DNA of 37,887 nt. Source: a virus. Its lineage: Duplodnaviria > Caudoviricetes. The stretch covers positions 1 through 37,887 of the IMG/VR virus record IMGVR_UViG_3300048598_000596; one strand, given 5' to 3'. Shown here one piece after another: positions 16,959-25,339 of the stretch (its first letter is position 1; the number at the start of each line of letters is the position of its first letter). A program made the translations under genes and the position numbers. The notes below the pieces were generated by a model that was given only the letters and a program-made list of their open reading frames with translations, had not been told where the DNA came from and made no database searches.

Positions 16959-18371
16959 CTAGGAAGCAGCTCTGGTAATCAATACTGTATAGGTCTTCGT
17001 TGCATCACCGTCGGCACTGGTTACGGCTACGGTAATAATGTTTTCACCTACAGCTAAGTTGCGCGAGGCCGAAGCGACTCCGCTAGTTAGCGTTGTAGAA
17101 CCTAACTTAATCACCTGTCCGGTTTGTGCGTGAGTAGCCGTTACGGTTGTAGTTGCTACAGCATTAGCCACGGCCACAGTATAATTAACAGTAGCTGCAT
17201 CAAATGCGGGAACTAAAGCTCCGGCACTTACTGCAAGTCCGGCAAGGTCTGCCGATCCGGCTGCCACAGCAGCGGCGCGACCGTCGTACAGTACAATGTC
17301 TTCGCCAAATACTATGTTGGTGTCAGCCTTCATCAACATTTTGAAGAAATACTTTTCGCCTGCGTTGGTAAGCTTGTCAATCTGAATAGCTTCAGCATCG
17401 TCGGCAAGGGCTACGCCAGCCCAAAAATTAGAGTCAATACCTGTTGAGGTAACGGCTGCAACAATTACATCTTCCGGCCAATCTGCCAAAGAGACAACTT
17501 GAATGCCTTTAAACCTTTCGGGATTCATATTGGTATAATCAACCCCTTTCATTGGTTGATTAGTCAACACATACTCATACGATTCAGCATCACGTACCGA
17601 CATAAAAAACTTCAGGTTCGGATTCTTACGTATCGCCTTAGGGAGCGCTCTGCGAACCAATTTCATTTTTGCAAGAATATTCGATTCTGTCAGGGTTTCT
17701 GGGCTTGCAATACTAACCACATCATTGTCAGCAGCTATACGGGTTAATATACCGTCGAAATACTTTCCTTCGGTGTTGGCTGTATACTTGCCGTTGATAT
17801 AGTGATCTCCCAATTCAAAGTCGACCACTTTGGCCAATTCGGCGAGCAACTGACTTTGAATCTCGGGTGGTAATTCGGCAAACACCAGGTTACCTGTAGT
17901 CTGAAATGGCCGCCATATAGACTCGAAGGCACGCGGATTGAATGTGGTAAACGCCATAAAATCTTTTGGCTCCAGATATTTTTCATCTATCGTAAATGTT
18001 CCGTTCGAATCCTCTTCAGTAGGTTGCTCTTTTCGTGTCTGCAACATCTTACCCGCCTTAAGCCTCGGTATCGAAAATTTCTTGGTAACATTAGGTTGTA
18101 AGTGTATATGCCCGCCCGCAACAATTTCGTTTCCGGTTGTGGCTCGCACAAGCAACTGTTCTAAGACTTCGCCTGCGTAGGCCGAAGTAATAACTACATC
18201 TTGCAATACACCTTGCATTGGTTTAACAAACATGGCTACGGCACTAATACCAAGCATTACCGATACCACAACAGCGGCATCTAAGCCGGAAGCGTAGGCA
18301 AATACGTTGCCTAAAATAACATTGATAAGTATCGCAAAAAGAAGCGATAAAATGAGTTTTGTCTTTTTCAT
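16959..18371 (-). CDS. Major capsid protein with hydrophobic N-terminal leader and C-terminal cadherin-like beta-sandwich
   Basis: Follows protease/scaffold; YAGEVLEQLL, YFDGILTRI, YFFKMLMKAD; C-terminal LVPAFDAATVNYTV...TKTYTVLITRA. Confidence 0.8.
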   Translation of the reverse strand: MKKTKLILSLLFAILINVILGNVFAYASGLDAAVVVSVMLGISAVAMFVKPMQGVLQDVVITSAYAGEVLEQLLVRATTGNEIVAGGHIHLQPNVTKKFSIPRLKAGKMLQTRKEQPTEEDSNGTFTIDEKYLEPKDFMAFTTFNPRAFESIWRPFQTTGNLVFAELPPEIQSQLLAELAKVVDFELGDHYINGKYTANTEGKYFDGILTRIAADNDVVSIASPETLTESNILAKMKLVRRALPKAIRKNPNLKFFMSVRDAESYEYVLTNQPMKGVDYTNMNPERFKGIQVVSLADWPEDVIVAAVTSTGIDSNFWAGVALADDAEAIQIDKLTNAGEKYFFKMLMKADTNIVFGEDIVLYDGRAAAVAAGSADLAGLAVSAGALVPAFDAATVNYTVAVANAVATTTVTATHAQTGQVIKLGSTTLTSGVASASRNLAVGENIITVAVTSADGDATKTYTVLITRAAS

Positions 18372-22070: not shown

Positions 22071-23342
22071 ATGGCAACAACAAAAGAAACTGCAATACAG
22101 AAACTTATCTACACTCAGATAAAACGCCAAAATCTCGACATTTCAAACTGGCGAAAGGCGTTAAAAGCTGCTGAGCAAAAAGCCGAATATCACCCGCGCC
22201 GTTACTCGTTGTACGACATTTACAATGAGATAATACTTGACACACATTTGTCGTCGGTGATAGATAAGCGAAAAAAGGCAATATTAAACGCGCGTATTGA
22301 ATTTGTTCGCAATGGCGTGCCAGACGAAAAAATAAACGAACAATTGCGCTCACCTTGGTTTCTGCGTTTTCTTAACGACCTGCTAGACACTGAGTATTGG
22401 GGATTCTCTGTATTTCAATTCTTTAACGACGCAACTGGCTGGATTAATTACGACCTCATTCCGCGTAAGCATGTATCGCCGGAGGAAGGCTTAATTCTTC
22501 GCCGGCAAGAGGACTCTTCAGGCGAACTTTTCGAATCGTTTCCGAATCTTGTTACAATAGGCAATCAATACGACCTTGGCCTGTTGAACAAAATCGCACC
22601 AATGGCCATTTACAAACGTAACTGCATGGCCGACCTTGCACAGTATTCAGAGCTTTACGGGCAACCGATTAAGGAGGCAACCTACGACGGATTGGATGAA
22701 ACAATTCGCGAAAAACTGTTAACCGACCTGACCGAAATAGGCTCGTCGCCTGTAATCATTCACCCCGACGGAACAAAAATAAACATTTTAGACACCCTCG
22801 GAAAAGGAACTACAACCACGCTGTTTCAGACCTGTATTAACCTTTACGACCAGCAAATTTCAAAAGCGATTTTGGGTAATGTTTTAACTACCGATTCCGG
22901 CGCAAACGGAAGTCGGTCGCTGGGCGAGGTGCAACAGGAAAGCGAAGTTCAAAAACAAGAAGCCGACCGCATTTTTGTACTTAATACGCTCAACTACAAT
23001 TTAGCAGACATCTTTAACACCTTAGGATTCAATACACAAGGAGGCTTGTTTTCGTTTGTGAAAAACGAAAACATAGACCTGACTACTGCTATTGAGATAG
23101 ACATGAAATTGTCGAATCTTGGCGTGCCACTCGATGACGATTATTTCTATACCACTTACGGTCGCCCGAAACCCGCTAATTACGATGCGCTGAAAAGCGA
23201 AATGAAGGCAAAACAAGTACAACAACAGCAACCCACTTTCAGCAACAAAGCGGACGAACCTTATTTTTCGGGTTCTAAAAAAACGCATCTCAATGCTAAG
23301 CCGAAAAACATCTGGCAAAAGGGTGCCGATTTTTTCGGTTAA
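22071..23342 (+). CDS. Portal protein, DUF935 / Mu gp29-like
   Basis: DTHLSSVIDKRK, ELYGQP, QISKAILGNVLTT, SRSLGEV. Confidence 0.9.
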   Translation: MATTKETAIQKLIYTQIKRQNLDISNWRKALKAAEQKAEYHPRRYSLYDIYNEIILDTHLSSVIDKRKKAILNARIEFVRNGVPDEKINEQLRSPWFLRFLNDLLDTEYWGFSVFQFFNDATGWINYDLIPRKHVSPEEGLILRRQEDSSGELFESFPNLVTIGNQYDLGLLNKIAPMAIYKRNCMADLAQYSELYGQPIKEATYDGLDETIREKLLTDLTEIGSSPVIIHPDGTKINILDTLGKGTTTTLFQTCINLYDQQISKAILGNVLTTDSGANGSRSLGEVQQESEVQKQEADRIFVLNTLNYNLADIFNTLGFNTQGGLFSFVKNENIDLTTAIEIDMKLSNLGVPLDDDYFYTTYGRPKPANYDALKSEMKAKQVQQQQPTFSNKADEPYFSGSKKTHLNAKPKNIWQKGADFFG

Positions 23343-23359
23343 GCCCTCCACGCGAGGGC
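23330..23359 (+). other. Putative -1 programmed ribosomal frameshift signal (portal to MuF)
   Basis: T-TTT-TTC at 23330-23336, 6-nt spacer, GCCCTC-CACGC-GAGGGC hairpin 23343-23359; -1 frame open into MuF. Confidence 0.78.
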
Positions 23360-24655
23360 ATTACAGCAAAAATTGACAAGCTTTACGCGCAAACCTGCAC
23401 GCATTGTGCCGGTATTCAGGTTTTTAATGTGGCGGGCGACAACCCGTTTTCGGACATCGGTGCAGAGCTGTTTGAGCATGTTTTAAAAAACATATACCAG
23501 GAGCGTGTTGACGTTAAGAACGAAATAGAACCGAACTTGTTCTTTTCGGCCTTCAATCTTTTCGACGATGCCGTAAAACAAGCGTTTGGGCAAGTGGAAT
23601 GGGGACAACCCAATTACGAATTTGTAAACGAGTTACGGCACAACAATGCGGTGTTTTCCGCCTTTCGCGCGCATGCACAAGCCAATGAACTGGCAAAGCA
23701 GCTGCTCGACGAAAACGACAAGCTGAAATCGTTCTCAAAATTCAAAACCGATTGCGCGCCTGTGCTCGAAAAATGGAACGTAAACCATTTAAAAACAGAG
23801 TACAACACAGCCGTTATACGTGCGCGTGCGGCTGCTAAATGGAAAGACTTTGAGCGCGATGCAGACCTGTACCCGAACCTGATGTGGCTACCCTCAACCA
23901 GTGCCGAGCAACGGCCTTATCATCAACCGTTTTACGGCAAAATATGGCCTATCAACGATCCGTTTTGGAGCACCAATTATCCGGGTAACTTGTGGAACTG
24001 CAAGTGCGGCATAACCAATACCGACAGCAAGCCCACGGGCAAAGGTGTTGAAGCTGATTACAAGCCTGCCGACGGGCTCGACGGTAATCCGGGGAAAACA
24101 GCCAAATTGTTTTCGGATAAACACCCTTATATAGCCGATGCCGACAAAGGGGTACGTAAGCTGGCTGAGCAAAAAGCCAATGAAATAGTGCCGTTACCCG
24201 AAACCTATAAAGGCAAAAAAGGAGGTTACCTCAATATCGTTCCGCAAAACGGAGCAGAGGCCGCCAAAAATTTAAAAACGTACAAAATAATGGCAGATAA
24301 TGGCGGTCAATATGAGCTAATTAAACCTATTAACAACGAGAAAGGCAAAAAAAATCCCGATGCATTAAATAGGCGTACAGGTAAACTTTCGGATGCTAAA
24401 CATCCTGTTACTGATAAAGGAATAAATGCAATTCAAAATTCGATAAAGGAAGCCTCACGTCAGGGGGTGAGCGAGGTAGTAATAAGACTGGATATGAATT
24501 ACAGTGTGCGTTCTATTTTCGAAGGTTTTAAAGCAGCCTTACAGGGTAATAGAGCCAGCAGTATTGAGACAATTATTCTTATACGCAAAAACAAAAAACC
24601 GATGTATTTTAAAACCGAAGAGTTGAGGGCATTCTTTAAAAGAAAACAAGGCTAA
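23336..24655 (+). CDS. MuF (Mu gp30-like) minor head protein with C-terminal CdiA-like PD-(D/E)xK nuclease domain, probably made as a portal fusion
   Basis: HLKTEYNTA, YPNLMW, RPYH, DPFW..YPGNLWNCKC MuF motifs; C-terminal KNPDA...SDAK...IQNSIKEASRQG..VVI; frame open from the slippery site (ORF track start 23429 is GTG). Confidence 0.82.
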   Translation, partial: RLSPPREGITAKIDKLYAQTCTHCAGIQVFNVAGDNPFSDIGAELFEHVLKNIYQERVDVKNEIEPNLFFSAFNLFDDAVKQAFGQVEWGQPNYEFVNELRHNNAVFSAFRAHAQANELAKQLLDENDKLKSFSKFKTDCAPVLEKWNVNHLKTEYNTAVIRARAAAKWKDFERDADLYPNLMWLPSTSAEQRPYHQPFYGKIWPINDPFWSTNYPGNLWNCKCGITNTDSKPTGKGVEADYKPADGLDGNPGKTAKLFSDKHPYIADADKGVRKLAEQKANEIVPLPETYKGKKGGYLNIVPQNGAEAAKNLKTYKIMADNGGQYELIKPINNEKGKKNPDALNRRTGKLSDAKHPVTDKGINAIQNSIKEASRQGVSEVVIRLDMNYSVRSIFEGFKAALQGNRASSIETIILIRKNKKPMYFKTEELRAFFKRKQG

Positions 24656-24715
24656 TACTAAAAGTACCAGCCTGTTTGGGGGAGTGATGTCGGTTGCCCG
24701 AATTACATCTCTCCG
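24640..24715 (-). ncRNA. Putative ~80-nt sRNA: tRNA acceptor-stem-like minihelix ending C-CCA, then intrinsic terminator
   Basis: TATCTTTG -7 element 24727-24720; GGAG-A-GAUGU/ACAUC-A-CUCC stem capped by CGG-GCAA-CCG; CCCA; terminator AGGCUGGUACU/AGUAUUAGCCU plus U-run. Confidence 0.6.
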
Positions 24716-24778
24716 TGTGCAAAGATACAACATAAATTCTTTAATTCTCTAACTACTTCATTCTTTAACTTCTTAGCT

Positions 24779-25339
24779 ATGACTCCCGAAGAATTTAGTA
24801 ATGCACTCATGCGCGCAATTCCTTCAATAAAGGAATATGCAGCGCAGGAGTTTCCGCGCAGGGCGCTAAAAATAGGCATCGACCATTTTCAGAACAACTT
24901 TCGCAAAGGCGGGTTTGTAAACGGCGGGTTGCATCCGTGGCCAAAGGCAAAACGGCAAACGGGCGGTAAATATGCCCTCAACAACTACGGCACGCTGCTA
25001 AGTGCACGTAACGAACTGTTCAACAGCATCGGCGGTATTACACGCTCCGGACAGGCAGTAATTAGGGTTGACAAAGAGTACGCGCAGATACACAACGATG
25101 GCGGTACCATTAATCATCCCGGGGGTACGGCCTATTTTTCGAAAAGCGGTAGAGCCGTGTTTGTGAAAAACGAAACCGCAGCGCGGTATCAGAGCCTGCA
25201 TTTAAAACCGATGAAACGCACCGCGCCGCATAAGATAACTATCCCCAAACGGCAGTTTATTGGTGAGAGCATTGAGCTCAACGATGCCCTTTCGGCTCAG
25301 GTAGAAAAAGATTTTTTACGGATTTTAAACTTCGATTAA
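24779..25339 (+). CDS. Phage virion morphogenesis protein (Mu gpG/gp31-like)
   Basis: FQNNFRKGGF, YAQIHNDGG, IPKRQFIG. Confidence 0.85.
   Translation: MTPEEFSNALMRAIPSIKEYAAQEFPRRALKIGIDHFQNNFRKGGFVNGGLHPWPKAKRQTGGKYALNNYGTLLSARNELFNSIGGITRSGQAVIRVDKEYAQIHNDGGTINHPGGTAYFSKSGRAVFVKNETAARYQSLHLKPMKRTAPHKITIPKRQFIGESIELNDALSAQVEKDFLRILNFD

Follow-up and report, generated by a model that had tools for sequence, protein, structure and literature searches.

The DNA analyzed here, referred to as the window (37,887 nt at its full length), is a virus record of a Mu-like phage, IMGVR_UViG_3300048598_000596. Its plus-strand head module runs in the order terminase, Mu gp36-like adaptor, portal (22071-23342), MuF, and neck. 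Among the matches listed, the nearest relatives of the portal come from Bacteroidales genomes and from hankyphage-type phages. On the minus strand, the window also encodes a sigma-70 family factor of the phage (29569-30420; Pfam regions r1.2, r2, and r4) and a probable major capsid protein with an in-frame C-terminal cadherin-like domain (16959-18371). The features at and beyond the portal-MuF junction are the following.

22071..23342, plus strand: Mu-type portal gene, frame-0 product of 423 aa (48 kDa); Portal_Mu PF06074, E 6.5e-76; phrog_113
23330..23336, plus strand: slippery heptamer T TTT TTC in portal phase, from the sequence; T TTT TTY in 75/75 clusters of homologs
23337..23342, plus strand: 6-nt spacer formed by the last portal codon and the TAA stop, from the sequence; stem at offset 6 in 74/75 clusters
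23343..23359, plus strand: putative stimulatory hairpin of 6 bp with a 5-nt loop; -11.4 kcal/mol, z -4.2; pair types vary in homologs
23336..24655, plus strand: -1 frame extension with MuF and a C-terminal tail, an open frame of 439 aa past the Phe-Phe pair; Phage_Mu_F, PF04233, E 1.7e-10
23375..23386, plus strand: N-terminal [ND]-x-L-Y motif conserved in MuF, preceding the only canonical start codon; Tyr in 68/70 aligned proteins
23429..23431, plus strand: GTG, the gene-caller start, 15 codons past the conserved motif
23777..24010, plus strand: Phage_Mu_F core match (PF04233), residues 150-227 of P0002, 42 bits against a cut-off of 29.6
24182..24652, plus strand: C-terminal domain with a predicted PD-(D/E)xK nuclease fold, CdiA-CT-like, a predicted antibacterial toxin; pLDDT 88.9; 4g6v_A
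24649..24673, minus strand: terminator-like hairpin of a candidate antisense small RNA, 11 pairs plus a T tail, overlapping the MuF stop
24720..24727, minus strand: -7 promoter-like box TAnnTTTG facing back toward MuF, a position shared with MuF relatives

A first-pass annotation of this DNA had proposed a -1 frameshift here, and its reading of the letters is borne out: the portal ends in GAT TTT TTC GGT TAA, and the heptamer, the 6-nt spacer, and the GC-rich hairpin GCCCTC-CACGC-GAGGGC all lie where it had placed them. The -1 frame, open from 23300 to 24655, runs into MuF with the translation that had been given, and the predicted fusion does come to 861 aa (422 portal residues plus 439), or ~98 kDa compared with 48 kDa for the portal alone. 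MuF had also been said to have no ATG near its start; indeed, the first ATG, GTG, or TTG past the slip site is the GTG at 23429. The combination of heptamer, 6 nt, and stem occurs once in the window, compared with 0.01 expected. When the hairpin was folded as a 26-mer, to which the z of -4.2 applies, none of 200 shuffles was equally stable, and the 64-nt fold around the junction is unexceptional (z -0.8). An alternative fold that places the T-run in a loop is present in the window and was rejected, since upstream structure is not conserved. A search of 23000-25000 against Rfam matched nothing. Just past the junction lies a CxxC motif (23396-23407); Cys-rich motifs recur at this place in many homologs and may form a metal site in the linker.

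For comparison with relatives, we collected 255 loci, consisting of the window and 254 loci retrieved from viral, genome, metagenome, and phage collections by searching with the portal or an alignment of it. The best 80 matches per collection search were kept, and the set is therefore tilted toward close relatives. Portal and MuF occupy separate frames in 242 loci and are fused in frame in 3, and 10 loci are cut by a contig end. MuF stands in the -1 phase in 239/242 split loci, counting one (L155) that looks like a damaged copy. The three off-phase loci (L124, L148, and L245) have an apparent single-base indel near the junction, with the heptamer and hairpin still there. Clustering at 90% portal identity gave 82 clusters: 75 with the -1 phase and a T-type site, fF4, the three off-phase copies, and the three fusions. 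These clusters are related to one another, and the counts given below are not counts of independent events.

This shared phase bears on the suspicion that the locus derives from an in-frame fusion that has been broken, or from an assembly error, a reading favored by the existence of in-frame fusions of nearly equal length (859 and 863 aa). An independent contig (850 nt, 34 substitutions) covers 23288-24137 and is gap-free across the junction, so that the junction in the window is not an assembly slip. As this contig has no indel at the junction and 239/242 split loci keep the phase, we regard a broken fusion or assembly error as refuted, with a negligible probability.

To avoid circularity, the slip site was defined by the protein, as the last Phe-Phe pair no more than 20 codons from the portal stop; such a pair was found in 75/75 clusters. 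The codon before it ends in T in all 75 (18 expected), across nine different codons, and the first Phe is TTT in 74/75 (25 expected, given that TTT makes up 33% of core Phe codons). The full form T TTT TTY stands at the site in 74/75, compared with ~6 clusters expected from codon usage; the exceptional cluster has three Phe, with the heptamer one codon earlier. Inside portal cores, which served as the control, this form is seen in only 1/33 Phe-Phe pairs, and 29,779 codons contain just 2 in-frame heptamers.

The stem is similarly fixed in place. At least five Watson-Crick pairs begin exactly 6 nt past the heptamer in 74/75 clusters, compared with 0-5 clusters at offsets 0-2 and 9-15; this offset profile serves as the control because the 3' arm was picked by best complementarity. 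Loop lengths run from 3 to 17 nt, and the types of base pair differ among clusters at positions 1 and 3-8 (pair 5, for example, is C-G in 61 clusters, T-A in 6, and G-C in 6). In eight clusters, including the window, the portal stop lies before or within the hairpin, so frame-0 coding cannot maintain the hairpin there. Thus, nucleotide-level conservation, the comparison that the first-pass annotation had put forward, is seen for the phase, the heptamer, the 6-nt spacer, and the hairpin alike.

In a pattern-first scan, viral contigs were searched for the window's junction pattern alone, which returned at least 105 loci. Among the matches listed, 76/80 fully flanked ones are portal ends, including one duplicate of the window itself, and MuF follows in the -1 frame in 75. 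The junction signal is also carried by hankyphage, a widespread gut phage for which lysogens are available. A portal query from Elizabethkingia found no viral relatives.

Alternatively, MuF might initiate alone, at GTG 23429 or at a non-canonical ATT (23360 or 23372), with the hairpin merely tuning re-initiation and the T-run being a Phe-Phe motif. We consider this improbable. The Phe-Phe helix is indeed partly a protein motif, because fused forms keep it, but such a motif leaves unexplained the silent T before it and the use of TTT over the commoner TTC. The GTG has an A at -3, and an A at this position is important for initiation in Bacteroidota; a start there, however, would leave out the conserved [ND]xLY motif, which is seen in in-frame portal-MuF fusions too, and GTG 23429 is probably not the main MuF start. 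As for ATT, gene calls place an N-terminal Met near its position in P0126 and P0127, the nearest MuF relatives among the proteins compared, but at a comparable junction (L341) the ATT does not lie in frame.

Across the 75 clusters, the first 20 codons past the slip site contain an ATG in 33, only GTG or TTG in 14, only CTG in 26, and none of these in 2, the window being one of the two. Extended to 25 codons, ATG, GTG, and TTG are absent in 28/75, which speaks against an own start as the general route. The nearby ATG in 33/75 clusters speaks for it and means that free MuF may be made additionally, co-existing with the fusion, in those phages. Ordinary starts are also found in a Flavobacterium subclade and in four Mu-like phages outside Bacteroidota (D3112, Mushu, 3927AP2, and RS138); in the latter, the junction carries a start codon and lacks a heptamer. 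The Flavobacterium junctions had been considered as a second, +1 type of recoding, which we rejected: an in-frame ATG is found 65-77 nt upstream of the portal stop in each of the 12 loci, and the overlap is therefore an ordinary one. In the virion proteomics of hankyphage, MuF gave 3 peptides and the portal 20 in a 250-85 kDa slice that also contained small proteins such as Gam and the adaptor, so that the slice does not separate a fusion from free MuF by size (PMC12135933, S6 Table).

Altogether, we read the junction as a programmed -1 ribosomal frameshift from the portal into MuF, with a probability of about 0.9. The junction shows the heptamer, the 3' structure 5-9 nt downstream, the open coding -1 frame, and the selection beyond the protein that mark such sites. 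Heptamers of the H_HH.U_UU.Y class are among the most efficient, as measured in E. coli and not in Bacteroidota (PMC4066793, available part). According to the proposed mechanism, the hairpin would stall ribosomes while two tRNA-Phe sit on UUU UUC; a minority of these ribosomes would move back by one base, escape the portal stop, and produce the 861-aa portal-MuF-nuclease fusion, with non-slipping ribosomes making the 423-aa portal. Both forms would co-assemble in one ring, in which MuF would be attached, inside the head, to just a subset of the subunits, their number being set by the slip rate; the nuclease tail could be set free by proteolysis or be active in place. We infer that frameshifting occurs in vivo, with an efficiency and a ring stoichiometry deduced in the same way, and it would be the main route to MuF in the window.

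Other slippery sequences occupy the same junction elsewhere. In a phylum sample of 401 genomes, 53 had a Portal_Mu match and 59 loci were analyzed. With MuF in the -1 phase, 4 of these are T-type, 8 have A AAA AAG/A, 1 has A AAT TTT, and 1 has G GGA AAG; the remainder comprise 1 fused locus, 14 with other phases or ordinary starts, 29 without MuF by profile, and 1 without a portal. Further non-T heptamers were found at the portal-MuF junction in viral contigs, and hairpins are weak or missing at some A-type sites. The G GGA AAG at the portal junctions of L344 and L262 is, we assume, the same heptamer as that of lambda G/GT. L387 (and L402) have an A12 run at the portal end in place of the T-type heptamer, and MuF stands in the -1 phase.

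The in-frame fusions appear to have a slip site of their own. In a set of 39 fused loci (28 clusters; linker windows set by eye), the linker holds an A9-11 run in 24/28 clusters, and no A run longer than 8 occurs elsewhere in 22,027 codons. Lys-Lys-Lys is written entirely with AAA in 23/24 linker cases, compared with 0/6 elsewhere, AAA being 71% of Lys codons. A slip in either direction in the fused lineages reaches a stop within 14 codons, and these runs are likely slippage sites that give a short portal. Loci with such linker runs include L255-L304, L383, L388, and L395. Two of the other four fused clusters have G GGA AAG or A AAT TTT plus a hairpin. All three Porphyromonas phages examined (L013, L508, and L509) are fused, yet they keep T TTT TTC and a hairpin near portal codon 421; the outcome would be inverted, as a -1 shift would meet a stop 21 codons on.

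The fused forms are scattered on the portal tree, with 11 changes on a quick tree that supports scatter only, and fusions represented by a single record could be sequencing errors. The fF4 locus is split and has an A9 run, and a 98% identical record is fused and has A10; the difference is either a sequencing error or a real variant. Since the fused lineages keep a slip site, selection presumably acts for both a short and a long portal, which supports, short of showing, the idea of a mixed ring. Two portal isoforms, made by a slip into MuF or out of an in-frame fusion, appear to be a general rule of this phage group.

Long A runs also raise the possibility of an extra U inserted by RNA polymerase slipping on the T-run, with the fusion arising by transcriptional realignment, which we judge still less probable than an independent MuF start. 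The A9-12 runs at the junction of fused lineages and of a few split ones have the length at which bacterial polymerase slips (PMC5009743, available part), and a weak 5-pair stem precedes the T-run in the window. However, the run is merely T6 in 68/75 clusters and is phased to codons, and no 5' stem is conserved (upstream median z -0.2). The conserved stem instead follows the run on its 3' side, at a constant distance of 6 nt, and would be untranscribed while the polymerase sits on the run, which argues against polymerase slippage. The hallmarks of transcriptional slippage, a run of about nine or more A/T or a 5' nascent stem, do not characterize the T-type sites and are seen in the in-frame fused relatives.

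The frame reached by the proposed -1 shift ends in the putative toxin. The first-pass annotation had spoken of MuF and its toxin, and a toxin-like nuclease fold is what structure prediction gives for the MuF tail (model of residues 285-441 of the -1 frame, pLDDT 88.9). Its top structural match is 4g6v, a CdiA-CT of Burkholderia pseudomallei (E 5.6e-5; Z 11.7, the next being 6.4; rmsd 3.1; 121 aligned), which we take to be a tRNase. The PD...DxK residues P59, D60, D71, and K73 are invariant in 12 sequences, and the Pfam CdiA_C score of the tail is 24.7, below the cut-off of 26.6. MuF homologs swap tails: among 70, LPD3 was found in 17, a papain-fold deamidase in 11, and CdiA_C in 6. Based on the modeled fold, the tail is probably an antibacterial nuclease. 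No downstream immunity ORF is present in the window, where the next gene lies 123 nt away and no plus-strand ORF of at least 40 aa intervenes.

Beyond MuF, the minus strand holds a candidate small RNA gene (24640-24727) consisting of the promoter-like box, a folded body of ~75 nt, and the terminator, facing back over the MuF stop; the 79-nt fold has z -5.6. The box agrees with what we take to be the Bacteroidota -7 promoter consensus. Such a minus-strand box lies 30-115 nt past the stop in 43/47 MuFs with a non-deamidase tail and in 0/8 tailless ones, with a background of 19/1085 windows. At the deamidase-type loci (12/12; 11 assigned by Pfam or likeness and one by length and layout), it is ~240 nt away, past a minus-strand ORF of 75-128 aa. 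These layouts suggest an antitoxin slot downstream of MuF that may be occupied by a protein or an RNA. In L110 and L119, the minus strand of such units, 10-40 nt past the MuF stop, holds a tRNA T-loop-like motif, possibly a decoy for a tRNase tail.

The portal-MuF junction resembles several known systems. In the tail assembly chaperone G/GT of lambda and long-tailed phages, a -1 shift near the end of the upstream ORF gives a minority C-terminally extended product (PMC5009743, available part). Here, in contrast, the shift would join the portal to MuF, using T TTT TTC followed by a tight 3' hairpin, and would yield a component of the virion. Frameshift-extended structural proteins, in which a short and a long form co-assemble, include the T7 capsid protein gp10B and, reportedly, major capsid and tail proteins of Lactobacillus phage A2 and Listeria PSA. 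Those extensions lengthen a high-copy shell or tube, whereas a whole MuF with its nuclease would be placed on the portal here. SPP1 gp7 binds the portal and is present in 1-2 copies per capsid. In polymorphic MuF toxins, the MuF gene likewise directly follows the portal and has a variable C-terminal toxin domain (PMC5576092; Bxa, PMC11699363; Apk2, PMC10083569; all available parts, Bxa and Apk2 compared by description); these are treated there as free proteins with a downstream immunity ORF, which the window does not have. Covalent portal-MuF fusions exist as single ORFs in Microbacterium phage clusters EA3, EA5, EA8, and EB and are described as plain fusions in the available part of PMC7302621, whereas the join here would be made by recoding, and the Bacteroidota in-frame fusions keep a slip site. 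Finally, an X XXY YYZ heptamer with a 3' structure is shared with dnaX tau/gamma and IS3-family orfA/orfB, U_UUU_UUC is in use by IS elements, and the fused lineages resemble dnaX in their logic, slipping there being what yields the short product (in Thermus, through slippage of the polymerase) (PMC4066793 and PMC5009743, available parts). Unlike dnaX and IS3-family (IS911-type) sites, the portal-MuF junction has no upstream Shine-Dalgarno-like stimulator, with such a motif before the heptamer in only 9/75 clusters.

A full-text literature search, which missed most subscription papers, found no description of a portal-MuF frameshift or of a recoded phage portal gene. The word "frameshift" is absent from the available parts of PMC5576092, PMC11699363, and PMC10083569 (main texts), PMC6199706, PMC12135933, and bioRxiv 10.64898/2026.05.11.724261, and is used for other genes in those of PMC10367356, PMC7302621, and PMC10299305; "portal" is absent from the available parts of PMC4066793, PMC5009743, and PMC3711429. 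The junction carries a textbook frameshift signal at a place where we found none described.

If the frameshift is true, the annotated starts of the MuF genes in this phage group are wrong or arbitrary. Portal-MuF recoding would explain how low-copy MuF arrives at the portal vertex, and how phage-borne toxins are loaded, named as an open question in the available part of PMC10083569. A wider picture, to which we give slightly under even odds, is that Bacteroidota Mu-like phages build a mosaic portal of two isoforms and have repeatedly switched recoding devices (four heptamer types and A9-11 runs). Their toxins would then be synthesized already attached to the portal, in an amount governed by the slip rate, and be set free in the head or upon infection, with nuclease-type tails checked by an antisense-strand RNA rather than an immunity protein.
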